From assembly GCA_019057795.1 (NCBI GenBank), contig JAHLWS010000077.1:64001-128000 (forward strand): DNA of 64,000 nucleotides. Reading direction: 5' to 3'. This DNA comes from Promethearchaeota archaeon (GTDB taxonomy: Archaea; Asgardarchaeota; Lokiarchaeia; Sigyniarchaeales; SOKP01). Of this stretch, positions 2,314 through 56,328 are shown in pieces. Both the position numbers and the translations under genes were made by a program. Positions within the stretch are counted from its first letter, which is position 1, and each line of letters opens with the position of its first letter. The notes beneath the pieces are model-generated. The model saw only the letters and a program-made list of their open reading frames with translations. It was not told where the DNA came from and did no database searches.

Positions 2314-2880
2314 TTAAGTATGCTCTCTAACTTTCGATTTCTCAGGTGAATCTGAAATTAGAGCTCTTAAAAAAGGATATTCTATTATTGATTTGACGCG
2401 ATCATACATATATTCTTCCAAGTTCCTGAAGAAATCAGTATTGATATCCTTCTGAGACTTTAATTGATCAAGATATTCTTTAATTAGTATTATTATGTTT
2501 GGTATGATATCATACTTAAATTTAGCAATTTCATCTCTCATTATTTCTAAGGAAACATCATTCTCAATGGAATTTTTGCAAAACTTTTTTAAAAATTCCA
2601 TAATATCACGCTTAATAAAAAAGAGAAATTCATTCAAACTATCAGTGCTACGATAATTTATTAGGGAATGATTATTTTCCCCCTCCTGTTTTCCATCCCT
2701 TATAATTAGATTTTCCTCTTCCAATTTCCCTAAAAATTTATAAAGCGTACTTTGTGGAAAACCGAATTTTTTCTTTAATTTTTCAGCGGTACATTTTCCG
2801 CTTTCACTGAAAAATTTTAAAGTTAGTAGTTTTAGAAAGCTTCTTTTTAATTCAACTCTAACTTTCTTAGTAAACATCAT
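2314..2880 (-). CDS. winged-helix transcription regulator (ArsR/PadR-like fold)
   Basis: TAEKLKKKFGFPQSTLYKFLGKLEEENLIIR...INYRST fits HTH plus wing. The gene is divergent from the giant gene. Confidence 0.75.
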   Translation of the reverse strand: MMFTKKVRVELKRSFLKLLTLKFFSESGKCTAEKLKKKFGFPQSTLYKFLGKLEEENLIIRDGKQEGENNHSLINYRSTDSLNEFLFFIKRDIMEFLKKFCKNSIENDVSLEIMRDEIAKFKYDIIPNIIILIKEYLDQLKSQKDINTDFFRNLEEYMYDRVKSIIEYPFLRALISDSPEKSKVREHT

Positions 2881-3508: not shown

Positions 3509-3877
3509 ATGAAAGTTAATAATCATCGATCTTTTTTTTCAAAAAACGATCTCGCTATTTCAGGTCAAAAACAAGGTGAAAGTAGTTCCCTTAAAAAAGA
3601 TGGGTGCGAAAAAACTTATGAATTCCAAGTTTTTTACAATGGAGGGGTTTCTACTGAGAGAATAACCGTAGAATCCCCTATACAAAGGTTTGTACCTGAT
3701 TTCGAAGTAACCAGATACGAAGAATCTTGCGATTACGCGATTAAATACGATAAAGAATCATGCTTTAAAGATTTTCAAAAAGAGGAAAAACTTCCTACAG
3801 TAGAAAAAAAAAAGTTTCGTTTGATAATGTATTGGATAAATTCTACTTCGGTAACTATGAAGACCCATTTTCTTTGA
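3509..3877 (+). CDS. probable true N-terminal segment of the giant protein, out of frame at an A10 tract
   Basis: ATG-initiated 122-aa ORF overlapping the giant ORF, whose frame is open from 3769. A10 at 3804-3813 lies in the overlap. One extra A, or a -1 shift, gives ...PTVEKKK-VSFDNVLDKFYFG. Confidence 0.6.
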   Translation: MKVNNHRSFFSKNDLAISGQKQGESSSLKKDGCEKTYEFQVFYNGGVSTERITVESPIQRFVPDFEVTRYEESCDYAIKYDKESCFKDFQKEEKLPTVEKKKFRLIMYWINSTSVTMKTHFL

Positions 3878-6800
3878 AACCAAAGTCGAATAATAAAAAT
3901 CATCTAACCTTGAAGGTTGTTGATATAAATTCCAATACATCACAACTGAATGAAAAGAAGCAAAAACTCGATAAAAATTCTAATAAAAAATTAAGATTTG
4001 AAAAGGGGAAAAAAACACTTCTTATATTAATAAAATGCTGTTTAGTATTTTGTTGTATTGGATTTCTTGTTTACATATTAACGCTAAGTTATTCTTCAAA
4101 CACTGTTGTTTCCAACAATAATTCAGGGATTTTTATTTTTATGATATTTGCTTTCGCGAGTTTATCATTAAGTTTATTTTTAAATAGTAATAAAAGAAAA
4201 AAAGGAAGTGCACTATGGATTTTCCTATTTTTAATCTTAGGAGCATCAATTTATAATTATTGGTTATTTTATCCGCTCCAAATATTACTAATTCCTATAA
4301 CTATAATTCTTATTTACACTCTACTTTATACGCGGAAGAATAATAGGAACAATAGAAAATTGCGACCGGTATCCCTTATAGCGATTTTTCTGATTGGGTT
4401 GCCATTATTTCTTTCTATACCTTCATTAATCGGTATTAATACTCCTGATTATCAATTCGGAAAAATTAATCCGGGTGATAGAATAGAAATAGAATCCTCA
4501 ATAGATCCTGCTAAGTTACAATATTATTCAAACTTTGACGAATTTGAACTTACAATTAACGATTTATTTGTTACTCGTTGTGCGATTTCTCCTAAATTTG
4601 GCGCTGCATCAACCGTTCAAGTTCGCCTTATACCTCAAGATGTCTCGGATGTGGAAGGGTATTATGTAAGAGATCATTATGATGTCGGTTCTGATTATAT
4701 TGTTGGTCCAAAATCTAATTTCTCTATGTATACTAATATACCACTAAATACATTAGACTTATTGCCCGGGTCCTATAAAGCTCAAATCGCATACAGTGAA
4801 CTTACAGTGGGGGGATTCAAAACTTCTGAACCTCAAGAATATACTATTAGCTTAGAAAAAGATAATCTGAAAGCCGTACCCTACGAAGATTTTGGTCTCG
4901 AAGTAGAATATGGTTCGGTTTATACGATCAAGCAAAATAATTCGTGGAATATCGTATTCTCAGGAAAGATCGTTAATTCCTTGCATGAAGCCGTACCTGT
5001 TCAGAATTTAAGCTTATATATTGAAGAATACGATAAATTTGTAAAGGTTGCAATGGTTAATACCGATGAAAATGCTCACTTTTATTACAATCATACTATA
5101 TATGGCTCAATGGAAACAAATCTACTTGTGAAGGTTGAATCTAATGCGGAACATGCCCGTTACAAGAAATTGGAGCATATTGAGTATGCGGGAATCGAGT
5201 ACAAGACTGATAAGTTTTACTTCACTCCTGATGGAGATGACGCGGATTCGTTTCCTGATTGGCCATTTTCTCTGTACGATCTTCTTTTTGCTTTACAATC
5301 AGCAGAATTACATGAAATGCCACATCAGTGGGATGATTTTGAACTAGGAATGAACGATGAAACTCTAAGTACAGGAGATTTAGAGTATGATGACGGTAAT
5401 GAAAACCATATATATGCTTATGGTGAATTTCAAGCATCTCTATGGGCTATAGTAACATGGAAGCCAAGCGGAACCGTAGAGTCGATGGATTATTTGCATT
5501 ATGCTTATAGAATGGATGCACAATATCAAAATTTTTATATTTACAACTGGAATACTTCAGCATATGAAGACATTACTGCATTTCCTAATAGTGGAAGTGT
5601 TACTCTTACCCCTGAATATTATGACGAAGATTATTACGTGAAAGTTAGATTTTTTGCAAGTACGGGAGGAATTCCTGTATTGAGTTCATCCAACCCACAC
5701 ACAGCATCTCCTGGTGGGGTCGAAGCCGACTTATGGATCGATCAACTGCGTATTGATTATACCGGAGATCCTACTCCACCCCCTCCACCAGAACCACTCG
5801 CATTCTGTGCTGAATTTGACGATGGTTCTGGAATTTATACGTATGATTCGGTAAATAATTTTGAAGGAATTTTGCATGGGAACGCCTTATGGACAAATGG
5901 TATGTACGGTACGTATTGTCTTTCTTTTGACGGAGATGGAACAGTTTATGTTCCAGAGGTTATAGGAACCACGATTTATACGACTTATGCAGATGTATCC
6001 TATAAAGAGAAATCTGGACTAGTGAAATCTGTGGAGCATGTAGAACTTATACTGACAGGTACATCTAATTCATATCAGTTAACGAAATTTCAAAATATCG
6101 ATAATTGTATACCATTTGTCACCATGAAACAAGATGTTGGAGATGACTGGGATAATATTCCGTGTGATGTGTATTTTACAAATACTGGTACTCCAACGGT
6201 ACACGCAGAACGAGCAGGGTCGTTGAATAGTGTTACTCTCAGCATATATATTGTTGAATTTGACGAAACTAGAGTTAATGTGCAAAGCGGCTCATTTTCC
6301 TCGTCTGGAACAACTTCAGATCCAACTATTAATGAGGTTGATCTTTCTAAAGCTGTGCCACTAGCGTATTATAAGGTAGATGGCGGAGATGATGATTGGG
6401 ACGGGGCGATGGTATCCACAGATTTTTTAGATAGCACAACAATTCACATGGAAAGGGACCAATCAAGCGGTACGATGAGCGGGCATTATTACGTGTTCGA
6501 AACCCAAGGTTCGGGATTTTCCGTACAAAAAGCAGAATTGAGCATGTCAACAAGCGACGGCTATGATACGGCGACGATCAATTCGATTGACATGTCAAAA
6601 TCGTTTATTGTATCCTCCTATGAAGCTGCTGTTATGAATGATGATAGTGAAGATGCTGCCGTAGATGTATGGCTGAACTCTCCAACAGAAGTTCGGGCAG
6701 AACGGCATTCTGAATCGTATTATTCTGGAGCAATACCTACAATTAATGTATTTGTAGTTACATTTAGTGGAAATGAAAGTGTGCAGCGCGGAGACTTTAC

Positions 6801-9800
6801 ATGGGGGGCTTCCGACGATTATAAGGAAACAGATATTACAGAAGTAGATTTGTATTCGGCTATGATTAAATCGAATATATACGGGATCATACAGTGTGAT
6901 GGCACACAAGGTAATGATGTGAAACCTTCTTTTGTTAAGCATGAGTTTATTGATAATAATACAATACGGTTGGAACGATATACCAACGGTGAAGATGGAA
7001 TTGGACATTGGGAAGTAGTTCAGTGGGAGTTAGTGCAATATTATAATGGAATCGTGCGGCCAAATAATGATAATTTAGCACAATGGGAAGCATCAGAAGC
7101 GAATAGTCATTATGAACTACTTAATGACAATGTAATAGATCCTGCAGCCCCATATATCAATGAAAGTTATATTTATACATCCAGTTTTAATAATGAGAGT
7201 GTTTCGGACATCCTTGAAATGGATACAATCACTATTGGAAGCGATAGGATAGTTTCGCAGATTCTACTTAAGGTGTACGGAAAAGAGATCAATATCGCAT
7301 CTACCATTGATGTATACATTGGAGGTCAGTGGTTAGGCGCGAAAAATCTTGATATGAATACGAACCCAGGGTGGCATACTTATATATGGTCTAGCTTAAA
7401 TGTTTCTCAGTCGGATTTGGATAGTATGCAAATAAAATTTGAATCAGAACAACCAGAACTAGCAGACCCGATTTATGAGAACTATGATTATGTGGCTTGG
7501 GGCGATATTCTTGATAATCCCCTTGGTACATCTAGTAATGAGTTTGTGATTTCTGCCTGGATAAAACCTACAATATTCTCATCAAAACAAAGTGAGAATG
7601 GTATTAAAAACGTATTTATTTCAAAGAATGGAAATTTGGAAATTGGAATTGATGAGAACGGATTCGTTGAACTTTATATTAAGACCTCAGACATTGAAAC
7701 ATCAGCTAGCTATGGAGTACATTACGCAGTTAAATTAAATCAATTTAATTATATTTCAATTTTGTATAATCAGAGCAACGTAGATGTGCTTATTAACGAT
7801 TTCTGGTACACTTCAGCAATCGGGGCAAATCCAGAGCCGTGGAATGCTAGCGGAAATATTGCGAGTGGTGGCAATTTTGCAATAGGTCTTGAGACTATAT
7901 CATTTTCTTCTTGCTTCACAGGTAAAATTGATAATGTCACCGTTTTTAGAGGAGCACTATCACATGAAGAAATTGAAGCTTACAGGAACTTGCTAGAAAT
8001 TTCATGTACTGTATTAAAAGATGATGAACAGAACGGTTGGACGCCTGTAAATTCTTCAGAGGTCTTAGCCGGCTATATTAATTTTCAATGTAATAAAACC
8101 GCCGGAATCCAAAATGAAATTAAAGCATTAGAGTTTTACCTGTCAACCTATGAGCCTGCATTTTTTGAAGATCCTGTGCCGGATGATTGGTCGTTAATAA
8201 AAACAATAACATATGACAGCATTTCTAATTCTTACGTAATTCACAGCCGAGATCTACCCGATGAAGAGGAGTTCTATTTTATTGTACGGGCTGTATATAA
8301 AAATGATATAGAAAACGTCACATTTGATTGTTTTTCAACTCCATTTTCAATTTCACATTTCATCAATGGTTCGCTTTCTTTTACCTATACGGCAAGAGGT
8401 AATAGAATTAATCAAAATTCTCAAATTGGAGTTATATTAAATGATGGATTTGAATGGTGGCATATCAATTATTTAGACGTATATGTTAACTATTCAGAAA
8501 ATATAGAATTCTTAACTTCCGTAAATATTACTGAATTATATTATAATCATCAGTTTATTGATTTAGATATATTGGAATCCTGGATCGAAAATAGGGGACT
8601 ATCTAATAGAGAAACTAATATTAATTTTTTAATCGCTGCAAATTACACCTTCGGTCCTGAATTTCCGACATATGCGTATAATTACACATTAGACCAAGTT
8701 ATACTTGATACTAAGGGTCCCGATATAACTATTGGATCACCCAATCCATTTGGAACAACTTATAACGATCCGGACAATCACATATTAACCGCAAATATTA
8801 CTTTTACAGACGAACATTTTACTTCTGTATCTTTAGATTACATGTATGACACGCATGAGGTCGGATCAGAAATCTGGAGAAATATTGGCACCTTTGTAGG
8901 AGAAGGTCCTTCACTATTAGTAAATTTCAGCATTTTAAACATGAGAGATAATAAAATAATTTTCAGATTTAGTTGTTTAGATGATCTGGCAAATAGTCTA
9001 GTGTTAAGCGATTCAGGTCTATGGATCGTCAAGGATATGAACAACCACGGGAATTTTATCGTCGAAGGATTAGACAACGAGTTGTATGGTCTTGACGGAG
9101 ATGACACGATAGATTTATCTCTTAAAGTTATCCCTGTTGATAATGATATAGATAAAGTAGTCCTTAGCACTTTGTACGAAACATTTGAGCTTACCTACGT
9201 GTATTATAATAAAGATTTCATTTATTTTGAAGATGTAGGCTCAGAAGATATCCGTCTAAATGCAAGTTTCTATGATGTTATAGGAACTGAGTTTTCTTAC
9301 ATCACCATCGATATAAAGTTATATCAAGGCGCTACTTTAATTGCCTACGATGAAAAAGTAATTACCGCAACTGATACAATTTTTGAAGACACTGTAGAAA
9401 TTTCAAATATTGAAATCGATACTGAAATTGAAACGCATAATATATGGATGAGTTTTGCCAATGGCACGAATGCATACAATAATACTCACGGTATTCCGTT
9501 TGTTTTGAACAATAATTTCCCCGTAGTGAAATTATATGATTCTAACAATATATTAACAGCAACAATACCTTTACAACCTTGGTGCGATAATTACGCAACA
9601 GAAGTGTATGATGCAGTTTCAATTGAAATTGTAGATAATCATTTTATTATAACGCTTCCAAATCCAGCTACAGGTGAAGTTTGCTCAATTAAAGAAGTGT
9701 GGGTAAACTTTACCCAATACGAGTTTTCATATCTTATAAACAGCGATGGCGACCTATTTGTTCAATTACTAACCGAAGAAGATATAGATGGAATTTATGC

Positions 9801-33800: not shown

Positions 33801-36800
33801 TGACGCTTCCATCTATTATAATATTCATATTGTGTTTGATCTGGTTGTACCAGACACCACAGAAGAAACAACTAACTTAGCTCTATCCCAAGCGACCTTC
33901 TACACCGTAATGGACTACTTTAATCAATATGGTTATGCCCAGACCACGGCAAATATGATCTCTGAAATTGCCTACACAGAAACACTGACGTTTTGGTCAA
34001 CTCTCATCAGTGCTCCGCTGGTATTTTTCGGCTCATGGACAGTTATGGGCACAGATAAATGGATAGCTAAGTCAGGCTTAACAAAGGTTGCCGCAGATTT
34101 AGGTAAGAATGTTGCAATCAAACGAATGCTAGTTGGAGCTCTTGTATCATTTGCTACGGCCCCGCTCAAGGAAGTAGTTGAAGAAATCGTCAAGGATGGA
34201 TTTATTGAAGCCTTATGCGAGAATATTGTTGGTTTGACTCCTTTATCAGATGATGTAGGATTCTGGTTGTCCTCATTCGCAACATCCGCAAGGGAGGTCG
34301 GAGGTGCGCTCGGACAATTAGCACTCGGTGGTCCCATGACCAGTTTAAAGACTTCTATCTCCCTTCTCAAGGTACGGTTTACGGTAGATGCCGACATCCG
34401 TAAAGCAATTCGGCTAGAAATCGAGCAAGAAATAGAAACAAAGAAAGAAACCAAAAGACAAGAGGAAGAGAGTACAAGTTCGTGGAAGAAGCTACTGATG
34501 ACAGGGATTTATACGGTTATTTCATTAATCATACCAATGTGCTATTTTGGTACATTTGACCTTCTTGGGCTGACCAGATTTAAACATGCAATTAAGGATA
34601 CAATCAAGTATTCACCAAAAGCTTACGGAGAGATCAGGTCCAAGCTTGAAGCCCACCGACTTGATAAATATTTCAAAGGTAGACCGGAATATTCTGAGCA
34701 AAATATGTTTGCTAATAGATTGCAGGAAATTACAAAACAACCCGCTGATTTAGAATCTGCAAAATCCACACTTAACGATTATTTTGAGCAGCAGCCACTA
34801 GTAGCTATCCTTTCTCATATAAACTACAATCCAAAAGAAGTTCAAGCACGGCAGGAGCTTGCCAAAAAATTTAATGAAATACAACTCTCCAATTGGATAG
34901 GAGAACTTACCCAAGATTATCGCTTTGAAGATAAAAAATCTGAGTTTGAAGCTATTAGGCAAAATTTCAAAAATGTTGACTTCCAAATAGCTAAGAAAGA
35001 TATTATTTCCGCTATTAGAGACGCGCTTCAAGATAAAAAAGATCTTAGATATGTTGATATTAATGGAATTGTTATGTATGATCCTAATTTTGTGTTGGTC
35101 GGATTACCTCATTTCAATCCAGAACAAGAAATCGATATTGTTTTTAATCAACCAATTAAAGACTTTGTGAAAGATCTAAAGAAACAATACTATACAATCT
35201 CGTATGAAGTCAAACTTGCGTTAATTAAAGGTGATAAAATCATATACGTTGATGAGAACAGTAATCAACATATGACTCGATGGTTAATTGGTAATGGGTA
35301 TTCAAAAGATGAAACAGTATATATTATTCCTGTTGATAAGGATTATTACGGACCCCTTTACGAAAAGGATTATTGGAGAGGGACTGGTAATCCAAGTCCC
35401 TACGTATCCCATTTTAATAAATTTAGAGAAAAATTACAAGATTTATTATATGGTCCGCACCTAATTAGCAGAAATACTAAGACTGCAACAGATAACTTTT
35501 TCTTCAATTATAATTACTTGGAAAGCGTCGCTGCTAAAATGAAAGCAGGGACTCAATTTGATATTGAAGAAACCACACTTCTTAATATGCAAGCTCGATT
35601 TTTAAATAAGCTGGAGGAACATTATAAAGAAGGACAAATGACAGAAAGAGAGTATGTTGAGCATACCTGCGAAGTTAATGAGCTATTTAATAATCAGTAT
35701 GCTATATATGGATATATCGTAGCTAACCCATTCTACTTTGAGGGAAGGTTTAACGCTCTTAAAATTGGGGATATTTTAATGGATTATAAGATCATCACTA
35801 AAAATTCTTTAATAGGTAAAGATAGTCTTTATGAGTTCATAAAGTCCTTTGGTGGCTCGAAAAGTGCTCTAACTATGGTGAACTATAAGAAAGAAAAACC
35901 CTCTCAACATCTTTCGAAATATAGTATTCCGATGGAAAGCACATATAACAAACTGAAGAAAAGTTTTTATGATGCTGTTATGGATTATGCGAATAAGCAT
36001 AGTGAAATCACAAATGAAATAGCTAAGAAAGTAGTAGATAAAATAGATGCACTAATAAATAATTTCATTCAAGTAATAAGGGAGACGGAAACAGCTAGAA
36101 ATTTATTTAAAGGTTATAGCAGTAGTAATCCGAGGGTAGATCTTCTTATGCGTATTCAAAATTGTCATCCTGCTTTACGAAGAGTCTCGTCCCTTGAGAA
36201 ATTTTCTACGCTTTTGTTTGACGATGAGAATTTCATAAAAAATAATTTCCTTAGAAGTGGAAAGATTACAAGCCGTCCTGATCTGTCTAGACTTTATAGA
36301 ATTGCCTTTAGCGCCTTGAAATGGACTGTACTTGATTTCGATGGGCTTGTATCTGGGCTTGTATCTGAGTCCGATTTAGAAGCCATTGGGAATAATGTTG
36401 AGAACGTAATATATAAATGGATGCTTCGCAACCCCAGTGATCCATCATCACCTAATCCATGGTCATCCTATTTCACAGAGACTCCTCGTCGATTTGGAAG
36501 ACTTCAACCAAAATCATTTTTAAAACTGGAACATGAGCTAAAACAATCCTTAGTTCATGCTGCTTCCGCTTTCACTGAAGAAGACATTTCTTCTATAAAG
36601 AAATTAGCAAATGCTCTTAAAATGAGCCCTCCATCTTTTGAAAAACTGTTATCTCCAGGGTCGACCTCTGCCTCTGTAAAAGATCTTCTTAGGGCAAAGT
36701 CCACTATCGTCTCGTATATACTTGATGCTTCAATGACAGAAGAGAAACTTAAATTTTACGATAGGGCCTTAGTCAAGATAGATGAATACATAGCTACAAG

Positions 36801-37494
36801 ACATTTAAGACTTTTTGACGAAAAGATCGTGAGCAAGAAAGGATATGATAAGAAGTTATGGCATGATGACAGAATTTTGGCGTACCATGTAATCTCCTTG
36901 CTTTGCAGAGATCTAGGATTCGATCCCCTAACATTTAGACCGTTAAATCCGCAAATTTTTGACAAAAATTCGGCAACTGGTCTTTATGCCCGTCATCATC
37001 TTGACACCCTCAAGAAATTTTCAGTGTATTTACAACATCTTTTGCTTACAGATAGTAGTACACATAAAACATACGATAGTCATATAGACTTAGAGGATCA
37101 AAAAATTCTTTTGAAAATTATAAACGATTTAATTCAAAACGACGGTTCAGGTCCAAATAAAGAAATTACGGCTAATGATGTCGAGAAGGCATTCTTAGAC
37201 AATTTTGGAGATCCTAAAAAAGTTAAGTTTTACCTCGATAACTATTGGGATTGGAAATCGATTAATTTTCAAGATTATTTAAAAGAATTTAATAAAAGAA
37301 GGGATATGATGAAAAACGGGGAGTATGAAGAATTTATTAAGACTAAGTTTAATGATGCATACAGGCGATTCTTTAACGATGCTATGGGTATTCTTAACTC
37401 ACTGACGGAGCTTTCAGATTTTAAAGGGTATAGATTAAGTAGAGTTTTCAGTATCGCTGACATCGATTACCTTAAGAGAGTCTTTAGCATTTAG
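3832..37494 (+). CDS. giant membrane-anchored surface protein (11,220 aa) with LamG/Ig-like/FG-GAP modules and C-terminal HNH-like nuclease; putative polymorphic toxin
   Basis: Uninterrupted 33.7-kb ORF. Five N-terminal hydrophobic helices; LamG motifs (SFDGDG, FVISAWIKP, FTGKIDNVTVF); D.T.P/D.AGN Ig-like signatures; DIDGNG and DLNGDG loops; late hydrophobic helices; C-terminal GFDPLTFRPL...ARHHLD...HLLLTDSSTH. The CDS is certain; the function is inferred. Confidence 0.9.
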   Translation: MDKFYFGNYEDPFSLKPKSNNKNHLTLKVVDINSNTSQLNEKKQKLDKNSNKKLRFEKGKKTLLILIKCCLVFCCIGFLVYILTLSYSSNTVVSNNNSGIFIFMIFAFASLSLSLFLNSNKRKKGSALWIFLFLILGASIYNYWLFYPLQILLIPITIILIYTLLYTRKNNRNNRKLRPVSLIAIFLIGLPLFLSIPSLIGINTPDYQFGKINPGDRIEIESSIDPAKLQYYSNFDEFELTINDLFVTRCAISPKFGAASTVQVRLIPQDVSDVEGYYVRDHYDVGSDYIVGPKSNFSMYTNIPLNTLDLLPGSYKAQIAYSELTVGGFKTSEPQEYTISLEKDNLKAVPYEDFGLEVEYGSVYTIKQNNSWNIVFSGKIVNSLHEAVPVQNLSLYIEEYDKFVKVAMVNTDENAHFYYNHTIYGSMETNLLVKVESNAEHARYKKLEHIEYAGIEYKTDKFYFTPDGDDADSFPDWPFSLYDLLFALQSAELHEMPHQWDDFELGMNDETLSTGDLEYDDGNENHIYAYGEFQASLWAIVTWKPSGTVESMDYLHYAYRMDAQYQNFYIYNWNTSAYEDITAFPNSGSVTLTPEYYDEDYYVKVRFFASTGGIPVLSSSNPHTASPGGVEADLWIDQLRIDYTGDPTPPPPPEPLAFCAEFDDGSGIYTYDSVNNFEGILHGNALWTNGMYGTYCLSFDGDGTVYVPEVIGTTIYTTYADVSYKEKSGLVKSVEHVELILTGTSNSYQLTKFQNIDNCIPFVTMKQDVGDDWDNIPCDVYFTNTGTPTVHAERAGSLNSVTLSIYIVEFDETRVNVQSGSFSSSGTTSDPTINEVDLSKAVPLAYYKVDGGDDDWDGAMVSTDFLDSTTIHMERDQSSGTMSGHYYVFETQGSGFSVQKAELSMSTSDGYDTATINSIDMSKSFIVSSYEAAVMNDDSEDAAVDVWLNSPTEVRAERHSESYYSGAIPTINVFVVTFSGNESVQRGDFTWGASDDYKETDITEVDLYSAMIKSNIYGIIQCDGTQGNDVKPSFVKHEFIDNNTIRLERYTNGEDGIGHWEVVQWELVQYYNGIVRPNNDNLAQWEASEANSHYELLNDNVIDPAAPYINESYIYTSSFNNESVSDILEMDTITIGSDRIVSQILLKVYGKEINIASTIDVYIGGQWLGAKNLDMNTNPGWHTYIWSSLNVSQSDLDSMQIKFESEQPELADPIYENYDYVAWGDILDNPLGTSSNEFVISAWIKPTIFSSKQSENGIKNVFISKNGNLEIGIDENGFVELYIKTSDIETSASYGVHYAVKLNQFNYISILYNQSNVDVLINDFWYTSAIGANPEPWNASGNIASGGNFAIGLETISFSSCFTGKIDNVTVFRGALSHEEIEAYRNLLEISCTVLKDDEQNGWTPVNSSEVLAGYINFQCNKTAGIQNEIKALEFYLSTYEPAFFEDPVPDDWSLIKTITYDSISNSYVIHSRDLPDEEEFYFIVRAVYKNDIENVTFDCFSTPFSISHFINGSLSFTYTARGNRINQNSQIGVILNDGFEWWHINYLDVYVNYSENIEFLTSVNITELYYNHQFIDLDILESWIENRGLSNRETNINFLIAANYTFGPEFPTYAYNYTLDQVILDTKGPDITIGSPNPFGTTYNDPDNHILTANITFTDEHFTSVSLDYMYDTHEVGSEIWRNIGTFVGEGPSLLVNFSILNMRDNKIIFRFSCLDDLANSLVLSDSGLWIVKDMNNHGNFIVEGLDNELYGLDGDDTIDLSLKVIPVDNDIDKVVLSTLYETFELTYVYYNKDFIYFEDVGSEDIRLNASFYDVIGTEFSYITIDIKLYQGATLIAYDEKVITATDTIFEDTVEISNIEIDTEIETHNIWMSFANGTNAYNNTHGIPFVLNNNFPVVKLYDSNNILTATIPLQPWCDNYATEVYDAVSIEIVDNHFIITLPNPATGEVCSIKEVWVNFTQYEFSYLINSDGDLFVQLLTEEDIDGIYASSGPIEVKYGVSTALRNTRQFYTTFDFTTIPQDEYVVLGEFCDISGSISSFTMNDTIPIDFEGPYAFKQFENGVSVNPDTGSISFIITDYSNIADYYFNVSFTEGYWVLDGTLYTFYFNSDSVPEGITFLKLTCKDSLGYNSSVDFNIVFDKTAPNIVQLYKDNDISNHLFLINVSISDISDYTIYLKCVNCYSSVVYDDMEYTALEIEDNMWQIVFDTSQLPNGYYDVYICGTDSAGNYAEKLIDPYFDNTPPQIVSITDKIFAEGENIYNNTIANTIFFNDQKYISLTAVDETESGFDWASVSQELGYQMGVQSVVMYYTEPLAWHNLSIAGTFNYDILSYEIIGYDQSSDKSRIKNIQAIKIAGHLVDKFSILMSGTSLILKIDEQYRFLLSSENTDEITALFYEYTDKNGIPLEFDNINKEWDLLSSGTNYFNVSEFLSLSEGEEFLFWFSLKDNLPNEFISHVFKGIYDRAIIRNSNNSLFSWHLGTNSTGAGVLIFGSDTYEDSTIQIDTSSIALDVWNEEDITRVYFYGSEDETTWQIIGRAYYSSKETLWSYYWNGELLKSQGQLPPKNYFIKSILFDKAGNYIIENSKIHIYDYIEFNLITNLVFGEILEFDENLLENIHDITGTIENFIGDVNLWDVIAQYYDPLANEWIPLNINPAVIATQGTYTITWDINADYMFMESMYDFNYTYLPMHVTPKTDADLWGSWGIFTENGTWQPIIVSQVGSLLDITIYQFNETLGWLVDYSISTEATIGTLEGQVFKLTDIDGNGISEIIRISPSQLDVLYLKESSIWVIKENIIARTGFEYFSFDFSFNSFGDCTMIIHQQDTSGNSYLSKYIFDSEFNLEFIKEVGAPLNFDITSIKIINQFSSDSRKAILIGGLMENSYSSQLLEYDFDLNFKNIVLESILGKISVIDYGELDGVDMIMLGIDRITIGRMDAVIALNQIAGTETWNEFELTGFDDVKFKVYDMLIISENNIKKLLLASETGVYETTFEYKEDLSTITSPICFIHEIFARDELSSGTPTIELVHQPIYSIEKIFYKSANKWIELDIDEVLVRHSRRDVELDLTSVWSGLSYLKIAYAFESFVAEETSMVDPSFDWKEGTSNTQSISAFGKFFDASTLPLMWLNPTSTYINPNWNSLPNAMTYRYSPVISKLGTSTMYPAISNTWGPEYNIPELENSLIHYDGTYDSGILVEDLSGQEFTRDDLADDEFYGQFENNYIDGVWISNPVQSTNYNFTEMYNDIIYSTNGIYNEYLSTQMVLVKNRINSYYVDASYTQSGISSTGSLPSGSIYKYLSQASTKDVEYALSSWDEYLSIYMNNEDTYSLELTCELPVVDRNGIDSIQIALDGSIVSSDFSKNYPLSIQMFNFNYNSGQGRWESIPMGNVYYSSGKYYYDISSSSFPFKERNVFDYDFWTWEDSTLVDAFRPNWGTTASNDMSTINFGDCFPSVVDASGNAWFDTTVFNPIYGSNFMIPSHTDNYVRNTLWSDDYRVLYYDDSHISNSNKFQFTNLEVDPSDFCTTSTPFPAPTSSTVFSPANFYNDFVSENSEFKVRIITQKEAGQAGSAYLCIGDLKTYVHTDSNYLNYKNFEYEGIHHVSDNIDVTISGVELGGKSGFKEVDTKYLEDKYNEPHDVYKASFTFDYDVKDQGGKFYFSLNDHVTYCVNDDNSQLYFPGYGNEFIFYYNCSTGWWEAYLNPQDFSTPIWNYQEGVTQVEIAPQVTSECAGSQKLIVSSMESQFLKRIRDKYDFADYKTLVANDKTGQYVDLLDMDFEEAFMTPENTFAQVSSDIDLYYSFNDEMVQENLENGLWSMTIDPTFEYDRMDDDYDTPYTYYEEGFIPNGYQSLDFTYITDVNREEVRRWDLRSGDALSDMHDDDGNTYRVTRHGNKNWIYLDPNTRNHVNVMDFYQIYMSNYHVDSTSGFESSNWYKLIDGYEAYIRAYGSIPSMAGYDTWHLLRQGIRIPCPNFNPSDPVDSISGRISARSWCLPGTNFAGGIDIISKYGQNVNLRNLYWSMVEPINYDFQLYGPNLNDFIHFDGNQYYIELQVWDAAYSEYDGSYYWNINLNLFTDQVYVDVMWGMGSTSTFEVDAVDDTINNDFMLFFQGEYYDPEPPYRTSELYINNQVEISNLGSKTIHKLVDASVLGNMYIPIAQPLSDDDNYIDIDYLFLYRMNQQTTIPIANKDGIILPSTLSNTYNDTITHPFVKYDPFLGNNTVRFTLGRSVLTHIFGRGSSTQIYANATLDDVRLLFNLFPPDESYVNFPTTHQYVEGFDNNKHNPEDLRDYDNYAISRFKNSALDDIQIPLVSPIILDFSDDTSDFENDFSLELALDLDIALNNRLVNSNWSLRFRLLYYNYVSGKWKDINSLLWAESEGQAEPVWDPDWSDNHIVYLKNASAELSNRLIPIQDNSDITILNPICFDTLNSDMISQGKMKLAFISYIMPGNLSVDTQGYFSYERFDPMVPINISQTVTVLDASISSYLDRSLNLENYLTKSLVLDNSKANMSAVENIGEILAVRGIFEDENGIIYEYLIDDYTIENDELVINSPMADIFCNVSIEYVPEVELEYRHNRWYLPDSLHIDSINFTQPFFVSNLKDDNKFYGTYVYKDTGVGYVLMYDITGQYAGVYVDFDDPAQVTGTPRGAVRYGKFNDISLTEFSLTDELLYQYDVLSSPSNWTGGTLNLQISAGFNDVLYSELSQVWCDSYNIVIELYKLDSNNLLTKIGTITEDLDTFLLGFHVYDLEIDLLEDILFEQNGQQLFGEAVAMNLGNDLYMTIKTSIENTTVDGYLFEGFYAQEIHSATLKIDASDSGLRVNGNLIDKTYMEIVQNHTMLTKTENGLYEFDSLKYDFKVEIKNLYVEGVKLQEFADYEFDQENSQLLLIANYSDYSGLLFADISYRAFEWKKGMVSALEPVRVSFDHEYMEKITKYLEIELGYSSTGFPGYEVEVIDEATGKVLLASEEKGAEMLNIYMYNYMKGKWEKIQFVAYDDYRESNSISYVADRNYLTFENFFNRTVAGTFEMQFLPTIEASIGKCFLSTIGFDINSINAKIYYSSPQMGFFANPQIEFDVDITQYIKNKNICIDEITLDLSFAGEVLLDTAFIYSDYAIIEEVFNIYLRNEYLEFEEYQLNEDGSIIILRGDLNRLLYYDIANDKYYIRVMLEYDWTCHLDLSLGGNSMLDIVATLNLIKYDLTVTYTIHKTTRISAQKIDIPYELVPILAPNYMQDNETITILDDDEQLDIGVFGGFLRNVDTRQRLMLRQQLIYNFTEAQEGWSQIILDQEYTDLIMRFISPVGYLNTPIEYLTDNTYFAFVADHEVVSVELYWKNGSLYEKIGDMIPNDEYPTLFEYTWYDISENTEALTNDIVGIMFKLTDIFNNTNQYDYNLTADFTPPQPSISVGDGSESFESMNADPLTSIEFINNEQVGNFIEYYRIIDLISGQASEWINFNSSEIFILNDLIDTPTNFSIEYKIIDAAGNENSTLLYNNGYEFMLFSRKISIYLTDNTIDLNSDSIYEREIIFEDNNQFNGEDLDIYINGFKYGTAVSNGTHYIISFGTENNESSLMAYSDSLMSENIYSNTNPLNHVSWKITEDNLFGVSKHVLVNGDIVIINPLTYNATATLELAHLYDGSFALPNFMRLQQVYYYNASNNDICYLIYGKDYIITDASGTIVFPEGSLVHDLFENHTSEVLRGLIYFEYAASKVCDLLSLSNADGLFVNFIMPAVFYDHTTIEKLTVRVQDFLGNSFVKVFYDLDLRKYFLEGEKDKYETDIYGLGKMMVIPLYIDFNELSFSNPGVTFDLSLLETISFEVSDSKRWPGSFMQEYEEFSVLNLPYQRIAITDLSLYNLICDSVEEDEDNYVASSFKVIAPNYYNYYAQDEFKIKRLDIAFTNVMAFANNSQITQGSEVDVEYSDYIELNYLFNNTILPVLLNDIITLPITLNNATGSNEILAFSIANWITKSDIDSLSGYTNYYYSKFQVPPVLGEYYSTFGSTGTPIFNIAFVNPPIFTLNITQESLYEPEPIYLSKNSYELEYGNSLLLEGCIKDNDEYLIEDEIYLYEYQEAMDGETVHVLKIIAPVDDANFISKEEFAIYYVNRELKKLPLFSTLNNKFFKNDTILKNNTNPEITYVNNKYLLTIYWNTTINEFIDYDTHLLITYKAVRGRPISPASYSTVDSYGNNIYSNLIEIPFARYNMITRSWEFEDDFTEQFIVDKNLLYEDVEGTSATLQGIQYDDGQVIQTGVISLEGIYVNWSGSNTFELLNESRYSWDINQNGELHITGLPYNSSGDVFRILYYGINPTPIIHSLINPVSSIYSIKVINNTGFEYEFEVGTDYVISEDGYAIYFKDLYNTILKSGNFSIYSRFLISYHSTHSRKIDLSRNLLLMLQDSSGHDIPVDNIPVDNLGFFKYQQSLKENSPLSIPVGGGERIVHMSLAYLPISVYNISSGGFVNLSYEVENGNKIYSHKEGNWVKFFSIITNPKKVKLEMVEDPSQNIVITQKFYEEREYQYNYNPLETLEKGEEYTKVMIDALVKDDYEFTFKLTTFEDKPIKDSIVWMHLGFMPKSKTKFLNERALINDLDLHPYFESFGTEEITSIGPGVGPQKMFGKPLTYEIKNYTSEQNAYGPYAWVYGITDALGEVTFNVSFDQDFREDFARCFGSREGITSVEDNVLYLRAFSTYFESWEDMAINNPEQYICSRDGDIFDGSTIIENYNFTGMITQDSTYVEGPVRVHKKDTALAIADSISYDLPDPDLQENRYDDLRLHLYVTEAHPIPNAKGSFSIEDLTRQYTMRELEATAKSILEDENNYEAHIKIYDPSGNYIITFKPPIIETPDGGGYISIDNESLVDTLLKCGPGLSSLVIYIPESEYYKNSPVVTIPIEIRPPNWLKFGEKNTKIPLIDPFVSAWGSAYNNEKEMTFESNYPFLTGTVWVEPFYNSTGAESSVQDYIDINLDCTIYNGDGTTSTFPLQNNIMLRPGNRDGILTFSIGLGPESAFLMGLQCDLNLSFNIDFNKDQIFEEKRNVEIVLLDLRLESNPSSNTPNTIWSIYDNEFISSDITVDIIDDTITKHDDTILNLGGVKNGQIYGQEIAFLFSDDTLEYGLDADSELLSLLALTGIEALKVVGIKDGDEYEFEQGTEWTIPYYSSGFLYNNSIIRFTGASIPDSGTEFSITYQLTFTFAQNKYYGNITLGYTNSYNESSIELQLPDGFLPESDESYSPMFTRFTDNFTGTGSQTQFKLNYGLSGVTQWNDNYFIIYNEQELNNTFGQFAKGVSQEHPTLTFSQAPLNNSKIIITYGIKSQYILSYGFQKVDKSFSDSIRLMDTDDTSPKIIDESNSEMSALTFENSSLYISLDNSDEKTILKLINVPLLYSPELNITFTFDHLILDLLDSYGNDFNNLAIEFKYITNDGYYEFYSDPLIIPLNYSEISSNIIDNTYAISYNKDLQAIYDVVGADSVDIEIIIHQSGKSNNYIPYLILNQYDYLSDTHLVETYDRMPLNEYCNLDINSVITTPHYFQIFSRPFVDGAYGDSPFNLFDGSQVTVALTDLPNSTLVSLDRNGDNYNFNYLGTSNTLSVSEDNFYMIPNLGMFIDTYNIDEMLYQDGYLDLYYGSGTEIDGEKQYNNNIFMDYAGVPVEDYTSSILNNAPTSWNNTYDFTNKFLTTDAITAEGRVFYHQIFDLDADLNSSSVINNIFPNYANDIYFGLQLTSNFDIDEIRAVGKPYFYSLSVQGFPTGKYKENYCSIHTTSSGDFEPTPTLYTLNIDEDYTLDYDENGTAYVLFFRPVSDLSSYTDSQNKIMIDYWVNHQFINNYDYYIKENPEDPYTSQIEWDYSYIDYDTFHLHPDFTGETYFTVDYLALEWEIFDDEYIKDGDDSFDFQPREFYNVSVLYTGDTSTDEFSVQYIVPEGQYLEDHIIFPTIYALAQIGDDEETMKVIKIYNSLMDNYISQNAPDSYDYTVNFAEIETYINTYYPSYQLVENSFMYITAEYDSILLRYPMGHTPFNYDYLGPDHYAYHIALYINGEFIAYSNETVFNDYVLKVEDNYIYFNNKSQGQPGYIAPNSEIQLIYKFKVQPGLLDRKHFLIVTYPWTNVFDTPYNPIVPDDQITYREKYRKLSGGSIISPFEYSLSIENRYSLYLSYRLNEREYYEEKFEISSEYYKSSKDGYVYNFITQQLDNYVDVLELDGENSINVYYFDTLGNMKFLDPSQYVVNIALREIIIKNDGNLLVKSNKISEFYISFIPKSNDKEFAAYRFSYDPTETITLTMDMTYWDIIGLEGLDVIPNLDAYYFLNEHESTIGNTVCHASQVAAYLSEGYELEFNIIGELGGFDQELNNGIHNGEYLAFYIDTNIKNIESLEYLTIEVHNNSGKMSKFSKNMTREELEMADFTIKIDLPTESNTLQKIRFIPHFREDNEYSIDNTQGISRMQTIQWATEQVIVLEDGQEYMPITLDHDLKTELNGFELAYVYNDKLQYLTFPEGFALSYNYDEITESYRFLIPTVYTNPDTHEIVEFKEEQLLLIRYNSPVKRGIAIGIGKMYFEHKGYNYDAHLDIPKAELLLVNADSEKACSEFTSDYYYQIPIELTPFETELNNRYKAIKIDLNLTSLYELTSSTILNFSHIIFSVPDPSYELTVNEVLILEKSYETTIEYGSMDSRVWQYTEIEMFTSSASPEEDSYQLTLENTPLFHPDSEWLDYLNIYDEDGNYYTAGINGNDHQLHYEPSTNIFTWNNEFNQFPEYFGMEFQEPLIIEPNKTLFFEYTTNTSWTEPVRIKVENLDLESIRVIYDYNYLLKPEFYDWYSQEFSMEHSYENIAYSFKEEAEYKVIQYYYEFFTVYTNTSEYTHTFDIGDLSFEEDFVNLSTYKVIGLTPTFETEILTDNTEYSIEFNKPSKEIIINDLDTSDGYYLNKFDQITVIINFSYAPISSFTEIFLLDTFNQTYLSDPEDTFYNYIDLDYRYLAISGATLFAEGSDVITSDTTSFTAIDYCRNPDMSINNKLIGYGSELFDNFEIYKDESSIIYVADIDMDGEPDYKHTIDLNGDGIIDIIKYGINDPENPEEIYWYTIIQDIHNEQVKIDQHLDDVKRTEWFDIDDRTFAQFDFNVFELMVCLFTMPTLLYYAARMVLPDVDYWAQKSTQQAINKEEHVSSNFYSVKVDDNRDGIPDSQINYERISVSIYYEVTEYRKTILAAKQQNIIRYLSEYITKSFNSLFGGPTDDGIFNKHLTEDVLDSQDFTSCNLYTRFNAPTLRATYRKFTQNITTAYTDTFEQVTITITDFDDEGEIEEQRFYKDDFKTGEVDNVEDYFSDLSAEHSITNVDTGQETMVSFDPELPFSHPVNISWDTKTWGPDNVPIKYDSLQVIGEDYSYSTNAFETTIIIRIPNRFSLYNDFGKISRSSVENDGWVEFEVKGLLITPQDGKVYYTSDVDSFIDGTAKISGHYFYVDSNEGKDGFYETVYILSDTYVRPDSSGIPKYNVMSIGLNYDFLPDFVPYEKIDKTEHEVSDFSNVAKETKMFGDKWIYNFARLENCELLKKTESKLEKFGLKSKDQIFEIYKLVEPSEQNSKFSTLFYEIRHKTYSKAWEQYRKQLLGDIVQQVFMSVVASTLSAAIDAITVGTGHPLATFTYFMVYSLMTKFYIDLQLHEADSKIRSETFYPESAKVRNPISLNEKSLGDRILGDSMAAALIGHPGGYYTTVSGGEPGNQYTAQLLVSPPNLARCLNAFGGFLNLLGENFLNMGESDPDSYWALDYDDMNLDFYLLTSELPSYNQKKYYTYENTDSLLSLYNWYWANTLGYLETRVKSASHYQLDAIRPTCIDGVPQYEFIDSSSYEQVLLQSVLYKPIVISKELYNQINPVPGHLVVQVQSKDYDNTEGVNAYDLEDLEFRAGYKAKVPLNNHSFEYPIQYISIDIIRDHKYEGSSFIVQNLIIDDSYFSIDCGNLYFTKTIEQIIIRNYEGLEDDYQKESLQSLQHIWVETSPDASIYYNIHIVFDLVVPDTTEETTNLALSQATFYTVMDYFNQYGYAQTTANMISEIAYTETLTFWSTLISAPLVFFGSWTVMGTDKWIAKSGLTKVAADLGKNVAIKRMLVGALVSFATAPLKEVVEEIVKDGFIEALCENIVGLTPLSDDVGFWLSSFATSAREVGGALGQLALGGPMTSLKTSISLLKVRFTVDADIRKAIRLEIEQEIETKKETKRQEEESTSSWKKLLMTGIYTVISLIIPMCYFGTFDLLGLTRFKHAIKDTIKYSPKAYGEIRSKLEAHRLDKYFKGRPEYSEQNMFANRLQEITKQPADLESAKSTLNDYFEQQPLVAILSHINYNPKEVQARQELAKKFNEIQLSNWIGELTQDYRFEDKKSEFEAIRQNFKNVDFQIAKKDIISAIRDALQDKKDLRYVDINGIVMYDPNFVLVGLPHFNPEQEIDIVFNQPIKDFVKDLKKQYYTISYEVKLALIKGDKIIYVDENSNQHMTRWLIGNGYSKDETVYIIPVDKDYYGPLYEKDYWRGTGNPSPYVSHFNKFREKLQDLLYGPHLISRNTKTATDNFFFNYNYLESVAAKMKAGTQFDIEETTLLNMQARFLNKLEEHYKEGQMTEREYVEHTCEVNELFNNQYAIYGYIVANPFYFEGRFNALKIGDILMDYKIITKNSLIGKDSLYEFIKSFGGSKSALTMVNYKKEKPSQHLSKYSIPMESTYNKLKKSFYDAVMDYANKHSEITNEIAKKVVDKIDALINNFIQVIRETETARNLFKGYSSSNPRVDLLMRIQNCHPALRRVSSLEKFSTLLFDDENFIKNNFLRSGKITSRPDLSRLYRIAFSALKWTVLDFDGLVSGLVSESDLEAIGNNVENVIYKWMLRNPSDPSSPNPWSSYFTETPRRFGRLQPKSFLKLEHELKQSLVHAASAFTEEDISSIKKLANALKMSPPSFEKLLSPGSTSASVKDLLRAKSTIVSYILDASMTEEKLKFYDRALVKIDEYIATRHLRLFDEKIVSKKGYDKKLWHDDRILAYHVISLLCRDLGFDPLTFRPLNPQIFDKNSATGLYARHHLDTLKKFSVYLQHLLLTDSSTHKTYDSHIDLEDQKILLKIINDLIQNDGSGPNKEITANDVEKAFLDNFGDPKKVKFYLDNYWDWKSINFQDYLKEFNKRRDMMKNGEYEEFIKTKFNDAYRRFFNDAMGILNSLTELSDFKGYRLSRVFSIADIDYLKRVFSI
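6028..7026 (+). repeat. four tandem ~83-aa beta-rich repeats inside the giant protein
   Basis: Units begin SVEHV (6028), NVQSG (6277), SVQKA (6520) and SVQRG (6778). They share I..VD.SK[AS]-like and ..ER-type motifs and end in YIVEF/YVFET/FVVTF/EVVQW. Confidence 0.75.
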
Positions 37495-37531
37495 ATTTTA
37501 GATTTTAGGTTATTAGAAATCTGTCGCACTA

Positions 37532-37543
37532 CAAAGATTTAAA
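37532..37543 (+). promoter_or_regulatory. candidate BRE/TATA promoter for the small zinc-finger gene pair
   Basis: CAAAGA-TTTAAA about 33 nt upstream of ATG 37576. It is absent in front of the second copy. Confidence 0.35.
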
Positions 37544-37575
37544 TTTTTAATTAACCATATTAAGTTTGACTAAAA

Positions 37576-37917
37576 ATGAAAAACGGCAGGACTATAAGCA
37601 TTAAGGACCCGAGATTACAGAAAATTAGGAATAATATAAGACTGCTCATTTTAAATGAATGCTCAAGGCGAAGATCAGAAATTAGAGATCAAGAGCATGA
37701 TTTAACTCACGACAAGGACGGAAAATATGTAAAGATTTCTCCTGAAACTAGCGAAATTTTACAGAATCTTACTGACAAGTGGTGGGAGATCGAGCGTCCC
37801 TTAAGAGCTTCCGCAGTAATATGCGCAGGTTGCGGCAAACACGATAGAGACGTGACTTATCACCGAAAGTCTCGTTCTTGGTTCTGCGTGCGGTGTTATA
37901 AAGAGAGGTATGGCTAA
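37576..37917 (+). CDS. small C4 zinc-finger protein, putative immunity protein copy 1
   Basis: 113 aa, helical N-terminus then CAGC-x17-CVRC; 81 bp downstream of the giant gene. Confidence 0.8.
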   Translation: MKNGRTISIKDPRLQKIRNNIRLLILNECSRRRSEIRDQEHDLTHDKDGKYVKISPETSEILQNLTDKWWEIERPLRASAVICAGCGKHDRDVTYHRKSRSWFCVRCYKERYG

Positions 37918-37963
37918 CTTTTTTCTTTATTTTCGCTTGATTAAGTATTAAGTTTGACTAAAA

Positions 37964-38305
37964 ATGAAAAACGGCAGGACTATAAGCATTAAGGACCTGA
38001 GATTACAGAAAATTAGGAATAATATAAGACTGCTCATTTTAAATGAATGCTCAAGGCGAAGATCAGAAATTAGTGATCAAAAGCATAATTTAACTTTTGA
38101 TGAAAATGGGAATTATATTCGAGCTTCTGAAGAAACTACTAAGATTATACAAGGTCTTACTGACAAGTGGTGGGAGATCGAGCGTCCCTTAAGAGCTTCC
38201 GTAGTCAAGTGCGCTGGTTGTAACAACAATAATCGAGACGTGACATATCACCGAAAGTCTCGTTCTTGGTTCTGCGTACGGTGTTATAAAGAGAGGTATA
38301 GCTAA
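37964..38305 (+). CDS. small C4 zinc-finger protein, putative immunity protein copy 2
   Basis: 113 aa, 90/113 identical to copy 1 by manual alignment. Confidence 0.8.
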   Translation: MKNGRTISIKDLRLQKIRNNIRLLILNECSRRRSEISDQKHNLTFDENGNYIRASEETTKIIQGLTDKWWEIERPLRASVVKCAGCNNNNRDVTYHRKSRSWFCVRCYKERYS

Positions 38306-38424
38306 CTATTTTCTTTATTTTCGTTTGATTAATTTCGATTAATTCCTAAAAAAGTACGCCGACGGGCCTACTGATAAGAAAATTAAATAACCATGAGATA
38401 TATTATAACAATAACAGTGAGAAT

Positions 38425-39177
38425 ATGGCTAAAATTACTCGATCTTCGAAACATCTTTTTGCAAGTACCGCTCTTGTTTTAATCTTTATGGGAGGTTTCA
38501 CATCAAAAGTAATTGCTTTAGACTATAGTATTGGTTTTAGAGAAGATGATCAATTAATTTGGAAATGCAATGTATGTAATATTAACAAAATGAATGTGCT
38601 ATTTGGGGAGAGTTGGAGAGACGCGGGATTGTTTGAAAACCTAAGCCAAGGAAAAAGGATGAGATGGGATGTTAATACGATCGAAGAAAATTCCACAACA
38701 ATATTAACATCAGTTAACATATGGATGTGGAAAAACGAAGAGAGTTGGGGAACTCTTGACAATATAACAGAATCTTCATATTTAAAAAATCCAAGCCAAT
38801 ACCCCGCCAATTTTAATTTTTCAACTTATTTGCCTTTTGTGCCTTTTTGGTTACCCGTTCCGATTGGCGATTATTTAGGGGAAATGAAACTAAGTAATTT
38901 GTACGATGTTGATAATCGTGTTTTGCCAACTTTAAATGTTCAGGTTGAAAAAGACTATATAAAACCTAATACTCCCACTGAAAATGTTTATATAATCGCG
39001 GTCTATAACCTTAATGGGATATTAAGCTCTTATAAATTATATTTAACTGGTAATGTAGTCGTCATTGATATTTCACTTGATAGCATCCCTCTATTTGCAT
39101 TAATTTTCACAATAGGCTTAATTAGTGCATTTTTTATTGTTATTTATTTATATGTAAAGAGAAAACGAAATATATAA
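38425..39177 (+). CDS. secreted protein with signal peptide and C-terminal membrane anchor
   Basis: N-terminal hydrophobic signal ending VIA-LDY, N-x-S/T sequons, and a C-terminal TM followed by KRKR. Confidence 0.8.
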   Translation: MAKITRSSKHLFASTALVLIFMGGFTSKVIALDYSIGFREDDQLIWKCNVCNINKMNVLFGESWRDAGLFENLSQGKRMRWDVNTIEENSTTILTSVNIWMWKNEESWGTLDNITESSYLKNPSQYPANFNFSTYLPFVPFWLPVPIGDYLGEMKLSNLYDVDNRVLPTLNVQVEKDYIKPNTPTENVYIIAVYNLNGILSSYKLYLTGNVVVIDISLDSIPLFALIFTIGLISAFFIVIYLYVKRKRNI

Positions 39178-39205
39178 CCTTTTATCACTATTTATTAAGA
39201 TTAGC

Positions 39206-40486: not shown

Positions 40487-40576
40487 TAAGGTAAAAGCTT
40501 AAATAATTTCAATTCTAAATTTTACATGTAATATTAAATAATATTAAACGAATCCAAAAGGCACTTTACTGAAAAA

Positions 40577-41281: not shown

Positions 41282-41445
41282 GTATAGTTTTTTTTATTTT
41301 GATTCAAAAAATTAAAAACTAATCAATAATTCAAAAAAATCAATAAATCAATAGTTGGTCTCATAAAATAATTTATATCTGTATTTTTATATATATTATA
41401 AACTAATCTATATCTTTCAACAATTATGGAGATAATTATCAGATA

Positions 41446-56304: not shown

Positions 56305-56328
56305 AATAAAATTCCAAGAGATTTATTA

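Follow-up and report, generated by a model that had tools for sequence, protein, structure and literature searches.

The 64,000-nucleotide stretch of Lokiarchaeia DNA analysed here (the window; contig JAHLWS010000077.1 of the Promethearchaeota assembly GCA_019057795.1, positions 64,001 to 128,000) carries on its forward strand a giant gene (3832-37494; 11,220 amino acids (aa) from a TTG codon, in a frame open from 3769). At a probability of about 0.8, its product belongs to a polymorphic toxin-immunity system on an archaeal chassis that is neither Rhs nor CdiA, for which we infer toxicity, delivery, target and immunity from comparison of sequences. An earlier note had recognised an open reading frame (ORF) of more than 11,000 aa and proposed this kind of antagonism; the frame is borne out, at 11,220 codons, and the genomic tests of the proposal came out as predicted, with swapped tips, co-varying partner genes and linkage to a zinc-finger family. 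The parts of the giant gene described below, the 122-aa ORF at its start and the two small genes after it lie on the forward strand.

Enzyme tips exchanged on a constant carrier

The exchangeable tip of the window giant occupies 34852-37494 (aa 10341-11220) and holds no N-glycosylation sequon. Three carriers occur within this genome, namely the window giant, a 13,767-aa paralogue on contig C74 and a truncated third copy on C66, which are alike up to about aa 10,350 and then diverge into the window HNH type, a GIY-YIG-like tip (C74) and another HNH type (C66), the first ~250 aa of the last resembling the window tip. The DNA of C74 and C66 shares 87% identity for the 4,029 nt that precede the junction, past which the two sequences are unrelated. 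Compared with five full-length giants of the same subtype, the window giant is mostly 40-70% identical along the stalk, with a tip that is almost unmatched; a sixth full-length giant is more distant. The predicted pattern of a conserved stalk and hydrophobic region with a varying C-terminus therefore holds even within a single genome, and a constant carrier with interchangeable C-terminal domains is what polymorphic toxins present.

Across about 45 loci, the tips comprise several HNH types, GIY-YIG, LAGLIDADG, PD-(D/E)XK, RNase-like and HExxH (metallopeptidase-like) classes, together with a further group of 1,500-1,700 aa that bears no class label. Most of these labels rest on motifs, the LAGLIDADG tip being assigned by Pfam (E 7e-7; PHROG E 8e-25), so that toxic enzyme folds at the C-terminus are represented by the HNH fold and the LAGLIDADG profile, and otherwise by motif. 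A maximum-likelihood tree built from 35 carriers requires at least 18 switches of tip class, against a minimum of 8, and three sister pairs of carriers with 100/100 support bear different tips. Four copies (L044, L050, L056, L105) are broken at or shortly before the junction, the tip continuing as a separate ORF.

On the enzymatic level, the window tip is predicted to fold as an HNH-type nuclease, with nuclease activity suggested by that fold. The tail had been described as basic and ~970 aa long; the variable tail instead measures about 880 aa and is near-neutral (K+R 125, D+E 122, pI 8.2), appearing basic only by comparison with the stalk. The HNH-like motif fared better: a model built from an alignment of 100 homologues places H11055, H11056 and H11078, conserved in 93, 93 and 97 of them, on two strands and a helix, and the beta-beta-alpha core, which also includes D11082, lies at 36859-37161 (model pLDDT 89). 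A structure search with this model returned mostly HNH nucleases, with Cap5 as the best match (Z 5.6 over 94 residues), followed by the Cas9 HNH domain, McrA and PtuB. With these enzymes the tip shares the two strands and helix and the conserved His-His and His residues; it differs from them by a large helical extension after the core. The usual HNH asparagine is Asp in 73 of the 100 homologues and His in the window copy, and the last ligand position is Glu or Asp. Curated HNH profiles leave the window tip unmatched and recover one of the 100 homologues (HNH_3, E 0.004); the tip likewise has no match in PHROGs and no usable match in the ESM Atlas. The general-base histidine and metal ligands on a beta-beta-alpha fold, by which the HNH superfamily is recognised, are nevertheless in place, with modest structural scores.

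The carrier itself begins with a five-helix membrane anchor (4006-4443, aa 59-204); these five N-terminal hydrophobic segments agree with the five-transmembrane (TM) anchor seen earlier, and homologues also have multi-TM anchors. The stalk that follows (aa 205-9560, ~9,400 aa) is acidic, with a pI of 4.2, and contains a LamG/concanavalin-like domain (7480-7974, aa 1217-1381; Pfam PF13385, E 3.9e-11) and an Ig-like domain (10435-10611, aa ~2202-2260; Pfam Big_3_3, E 5e-7 as a fragment). As regards the earlier description of an acidic stalk with adhesion modules, the acidity and these two domains stand, and the remaining modules exist at motif level only. The reported DxDxDG loops correspond to calcium-loop-like motifs grouped at aa 9034-9167, within a cluster at 30931-31350 (aa 9034-9173) that also gives weak FG-GAP_3 (E 0.001) and Excalibur matches.

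Between stalk and tip lies a conserved pre-tip module (32512-34851, aa 9561-10340), which served as the family marker in genome searches. Its AlphaFold model (pLDDT 75.6) consists of two long helical hairpins with hydrophobic segments flanking a beta domain, and the several hydrophobic helices noticed before the tail resolve into three segments (aa 9600-9644, 10051-10072 and 10220-10251) that are kept across 54 homologues. The module is a candidate membrane-insertion and translocation unit, as its predicted structure suggests; a search with the 780-aa model, taken whole, gave generic helical matches only and no clear relative, so that a known translocator fold may yet lie within it.

Sequon avoidance and the side of the membrane

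The distribution of N-glycosylation sequons along the protein bears on which side of the membrane the tip lies. In the stalk, sequons occur at or above chance, whereas the window giant has none beyond aa 9908 and its tip has 0 against 6.5 expected. Over 36 tips of all classes, 2 sequons were found where 261 were expected, with control motifs at normal numbers (243 and 265), and a wider tip set gave 34 against 378; a C-terminal sequon-free stretch of 900-1,900 residues recurs in all six other full-length giants. For comparison, cytoplasmic-like ORFs carry sequons at 0.93 of expectation and the zinc-finger family at 89 against 82 expected. The genome encodes an AglB/STT3 enzyme, and sequons would be selected against only if the tip is exported past that enzyme and must stay unmodified; export of the tip is, on this comparative evidence, very probable. 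An export signal, as polymorphic toxins have, is thus present indirectly, in the form of the N-terminal TM anchor and the sequon pattern. The exported tip may then be threaded through a membrane, which would fit the predicted hairpins of the pre-tip module.

These data also bear on the alternative, already raised in the earlier note, of a giant membrane-spanning receptor with its nuclease inside the producing cell, for defence or suicide signalling; the small protein would then hold the nuclease in check. The several hydrophobic helices between stalk and tip would suit such a receptor, as would the identity of the best structural match, Cap5, an effector of CBASS. However, a cytoplasmic tip needs no sequon avoidance, and sequons are depleted about 100-fold in the tips but not in cytoplasmic proteins or the zinc-finger family; the hydrophobic segments, which are moderate, fall within long hairpins in the model; and tip swapping together with lone partner genes better matches conflict between cells. 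The near-complete avoidance in particular disfavours the receptor, which we consider very unlikely.

In the toxin-immunity reading, delivery of the tip into another cell is probable, and part of the stalk may contribute to target choice. A sequon-poor stalk segment (12034-16431, aa 2735-4200) runs into the most variable part of the stalk, where identity falls to 16-30% (aa 3600-4400), and this zone is a candidate target-binding region. Sequon-poor mid-stalk zones recur in full-length giants, including C74 (aa 2800-4900 and 6000-7500), G037, G008 and G018, adjoining the most variable stalk segment; a receptor-binding or docking function is possible.

Partner genes and candidate immunity

Immediately downstream of the giant are two small genes, at 37576-37917 and 37964-38305, which, as the earlier note had stated, are paralogous: both encode four-cysteine zinc-finger proteins of 113 aa and are 80% identical in protein and 85% in nucleotide sequence. 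The first is the candidate immunity gene, on account of its linkage, co-divergence and family, and the second is its tandem duplicate. As an extra copy of the candidate immunity gene, the duplicate is recent and strain-variable, and not part of an array of different immunities: it is missing in strains of two other studies, with 37926 joined to 38368 in runs X5 and X6. The family comprises at least 181 proteins with a conserved four-cysteine finger, and has no significant Pfam, PHROG or PDB family match and no usable match in the ESM Atlas.

Linkage of this family to the window tip type is close. Among 34 strong copies of the tip type (101 genomes), 27 are followed, within 800 bp and in the same orientation, by a zinc-finger gene, and among carriers the gene follows 11 of 14 tips of the window type, the remaining three having leucine-rich repeat (LRR) genes instead, against 0 of about 31 other tips. 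Tips that resemble each other closely tend to have closely similar zinc-finger partners (Mantel p 0.005, Spearman 0.25), with the reservation that kin do not provide independent data points. LRR genes in turn follow at least 17 of 35 tips, against a background of about 0.5% of ORFs; they group according to tip class in the case of GIY-YIG, of the second HNH type and of one PD-(D/E)XK pair. Both the proposed link of the zinc-finger family to this HNH type and the proposed variation of the downstream gene with the C-terminal domain are therefore seen, and the adjacent gene co-varies with the tip as in known toxin-immunity pairs. A second partner family, of 150-180 aa, follows RNase-like tips (L064:5579-6028 (-), L039:5862-6329, L041:8350-8889) and stands in three tandem copies in L064.

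Furthermore, the zinc-finger gene is present in 38 genomes and the tip in 20, and this genome alone holds four orphan tip-plus-gene pairs and several lone zinc-finger genes. One orphan pair (L074-L076) is preceded by pieces of the pre-tip module, which identifies it as the deletion remnant of a giant gene, and two loci (L064, L105) show a carrier, a tip, several partners and then a fresh cassette beginning near the junction. Orphan cassettes and surplus immunity genes, a further hallmark of polymorphic toxins, are accordingly found. Immunity through the zinc-finger protein is likely, and kin are somewhat favoured as the main target; related Lokiarchaeia would be the likeliest victims because genomes without the window tip keep zinc-finger genes.

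A free-standing member of the nuclease family, of ~550 aa, is paired with a zinc-finger gene at C5:37201-39352 of this genome (G000) and in L107, L108 and L109, adjoining ribosomal protein S13/S4 genes in L107 and L108 as it does here; such a pair may be a cassette that has settled, or a reservoir from which tips come. In G051 (C10:14914-15576, the L051 region), one open frame of 281 aa contains both a match to the zinc-finger family and part of this nuclease.

The partner genes also bear on whether the giant could be a surface adhesin with an extracellular end enzyme, for example one degrading environmental DNA, and the small gene a helper of folding or export. An exported tip and the LamG and Ig-like domains are what such an adhesin would have, yet it leaves unexplained why unrelated tip families come with class-specific cytoplasmic partners, why partner genes occur alone, and why sequons are avoided almost totally over 900-1,900 aa; we regard it as highly improbable.

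Taken as a polymorphic toxin, the giant would operate as follows. As the sequences show, a constant carrier is joined at a fixed junction to an exchangeable enzyme tip, each class with its own downstream gene; all parts past the anchor, the tip included, very probably take the secretion and N-glycosylation route, with the last ~1,300 aa kept sugar-free. The stalk would reach a neighbouring cell, the hydrophobic hairpins would insert into its membrane, and the unglycosylated tip would be threaded into its cytoplasm, where the HNH domain would cut nucleic acid. In the producer and its siblings, the cytoplasmic zinc-finger protein would neutralise the window tip. Over time, tips would be replaced through recombination at the junction, and deletions would leave orphan tip-plus-immunity pairs and lone immunity genes.

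Several points weigh against this interpretation. The structural scores for the HNH fold are modest (best Z 5.6), with no Foldseek match at E<0.001, and no release protease was recognised in the window tip. Many LRR partners are convergent, on the opposite strand, unlike the usual toxin-immunity operon, and, in contrast to immunity proteins that act as acidic DNA mimics, the zinc-finger proteins have a basic pI of 9.3-9.9; a nucleic-acid-binding or chaperone role is therefore possible. In addition, the start of the giant may be frameshifted, so that this copy might not be expressed. The co-folding result for tip domain and zinc-finger protein (score 0.01, mark 0.32) counts neither way.

With regard to release, S24/S26-like peptidase domains lie within some tips (L064:6075-7532 (-), L035:3288-4853, L039, L046) and are candidate self-release proteases. 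Just past the junction of L036 (3160-3399), a ThiS/MoaD-like ubiquitin-fold domain with a di-glycine end exceeds the Pfam cut-off, and may be a release site for a deubiquitinase-type protease; it was found in this homologue only, the corresponding segment of the window tip giving no such match.

As for the start, coordinate 3509, where the range in the earlier note begins, is the ATG from which a different reading frame encodes a separate ORF of 122 aa (3509-3877). Its ATG is good and it has a sequence like a ribosome-binding site; where it overlaps the giant frame, by -1, lies a ten-A run (3804-3813), and the ORF is possibly the true N-terminus, through frameshift or slippage; the A-run with the following G (3804-3814) forms a classic prokaryotic slippery heptamer, and the overlap may reflect programmed frameshifting, phase variation or an assembly slip. 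In the giant frame, TTG is the only start available, and homologues have longer regions ahead of the TM segments (160-900 aa), which together make a frameshifted start possible in this copy. Searches of 60 relatives, of longer proteins and, by DNA pattern, of metagenomes found no homologue of the 122-aa ORF. The assembly of the 3' 13 kb of the gene is backed by other samples: contigs of a second sample from the same study are identical over long parts of 24,000-44,000, and a 10-kb contig from another study covers 28,010-37,926 at about 96%. A drop in contig depth over the tip in run X5 was set aside, contig depth being no measure of copy number.

Locus, relatives and implications for Lokiarchaeia

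The pre-tip module was found in 56 of 134 other genomes of the host's Promethearchaeota family; outside it, the phylum sample yielded 3 positive genomes out of about 265. These are incomplete metagenome-assembled genomes, hence absence from a genome is not demonstrated. Family proteins are 11,000-20,000 aa long, and module-bearing open frames reach 20,619 aa. The named homologous loci are almost all from Promethearchaeota (Lokiarchaeia), and a few short homologous contigs in other bins are probably mis-binned.

At the window locus, only a divergent winged-helix gene (TrmB/MarR-like; 2314-2880, reverse strand) adjoins the giant, and may regulate it; genes resembling helix-turn-helix (HTH) regulators lie upstream of several other giants. 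ParB-like, primase-like, HTH and ~600-aa surface-protein genes stand upstream of the giants in L139, L140, L142 and G000 (C74:717-6628), which suggests accessory islands; in L071, these upstream genes and the zinc-finger gene are kept and the giant is lost. Downstream of the window giant, a 250-aa gene that follows a GT87 gene in ten relatives has lost that neighbour, and the locus therefore borders a rearrangement. The 5' end of the 250-aa gene (38425-38453) corresponds to a 37-bp piece of a dehalogenase-like gene (C9:4901-4937), and the GT87 gene usually beside it sits on C9 (6663) next to an insertion-sequence-like transposase; run X6 shows this junction too. Loose ends of contigs at 38,418-38,454 were considered as alternative insertion sites and rejected in view of the same 37-bp match.

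This setting raises the further alternative that the giant delivers homing-type endonucleases or other effectors to neighbours and so spreads its own island, with the small gene regulating or chaperoning the cargo. Four of the tip families are known as homing endonucleases, often here with long helical extensions; some giants neighbour the ParB-like, primase-like and HTH genes just described; and the distribution is patchy, with this locus adjoining a rearrangement junction. On the other side, RNase-like and metallopeptidase-like tips also occur, partner genes persist without the tip in many genomes, as immunity genes do, and no integrase, ParB, att repeat, terminal repeat or tRNA boundary was seen at this locus, the nearest tRNA lying 21 kb from the giant. 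Such a mobile-element role is improbable, although slightly less so than a receptor or an adhesin.

Elsewhere in the window, 41446-43815 encodes a 789-aa protein of eukaryotic-signature type (Pfam PCI, UFM1-ligase-like, DDRGK, VPS28), and 56325-58081 holds tandem duplicated ~246-aa genes, spaced 1,054 nt apart and about 71% identical.

Among known systems, CdiA combines a long tethered filament, a variable middle, a membrane-entry region, a C-terminal toxin and an adjacent immunity gene with orphan modules. The giant presents the same series (tethered filament, variable middle, candidate entry region, predicted C-terminal toxin, adjacent candidate immunity gene, orphans), but differs from CdiA/CdiI in the lack of an outer membrane, in its N-terminal TM tether, in being two to four times longer and in its pattern of N-glycosylation sites. 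No Pfam match to filamentous haemagglutinin (FHA) repeats or a TPS domain was found over the whole giant protein, and no CdiB/ShlB outer-membrane partner was matched here, the control genomes likewise giving none. With Rhs/YD-repeat toxins, including that of Methanosarcina acetivorans, it would share a swappable C-terminal toxin and a cognate immunity gene; no RHS/YD repeat occurs in the giant protein or the genome, in a search whose control was positive in three genomes. The reported absence of Rhs YD and FHA repeats is in line with these scans.

By the account of Zhang et al. 2012 (PMC3482391), most archaea generally lack polymorphic toxin systems. In common with such systems, the giant and its relatives have a constant 5' carrier, a variable 3' domain as predicted toxin, toxin-immunity order, cassettes and extra candidate immunity genes, as well as HNH, restriction-like, RNase and metallopeptidase tips; Zhang et al. 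also list LRR by name among the immunity classes. Unlike them, the carrier bears no recognised trafficking marker, reaches 11,000-20,000 aa and has a multi-TM anchor; LAGLIDADG and GIY-YIG were not found by those names in the text of that paper. Judged by its genomic features, the system would work like CdiA or Rhs systems and displays every genomic trait used to define a polymorphic toxin, yet is neither CdiA nor Rhs.

Other archaeal giants and variable surface proteins are set apart by their described features. The aloposon giants Otus and Ephialtes were reported together with many unrelated giant genes for which no function was noted (Wu et al. 2022, PMC8813620). Like the window gene, they are giant accessory genes of Asgard archaea; aloposons, however, are tandem genes of 3,000-6,000 aa at tRNA sites with an upstream MinD/ParA ATPase and no described toxin-immunity layout, in contrast to a single 11,220-aa gene far from a tRNA, with no MinD/ParA ATPase recognised in the adjacent genes (upstream ORFs inspected). 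In Thermococcales, the VARTIG module (PMC8416519) likewise combines a surface protein whose C-terminus is hypervariable with variable genes downstream, but the part of the protein that varies is an Ig domain and not an enzyme. No paper describing this giant family was found in a literature search that did not cover Makarova et al. 2019 (mBio), the main archaeal polymorphic-toxin survey.

Asgard archaea have been studied chiefly as cooperative syntrophic partners and relatives of eukaryotes, and the literature search found no contact-dependent antagonism system described for them. About two in five genomes of the host's family carry the present system, sometimes in several copies, at 35-60 kb per gene. 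It is more likely than not to represent a one-protein contact weapon of Lokiarchaeia, with a micrometre-scale glycosylated tether anchored in the producer, a membrane-crossing module of a kind so far undescribed, a sugar-free cargo of 900-1,900 aa from homing-endonuclease, RNase and peptidase families, LRR or zinc-finger immunity and strain-level discrimination of self from non-self. At their size, the tip and the 113-aa gene lend themselves to a direct test of toxicity and rescue. The system points to a membrane-translocation module without a clear structural relative, to new immunity families and to a pool of new nucleases; it would account for a class of Asgard giants whose role has so far been unexplained and would open a testable route to kin discrimination.

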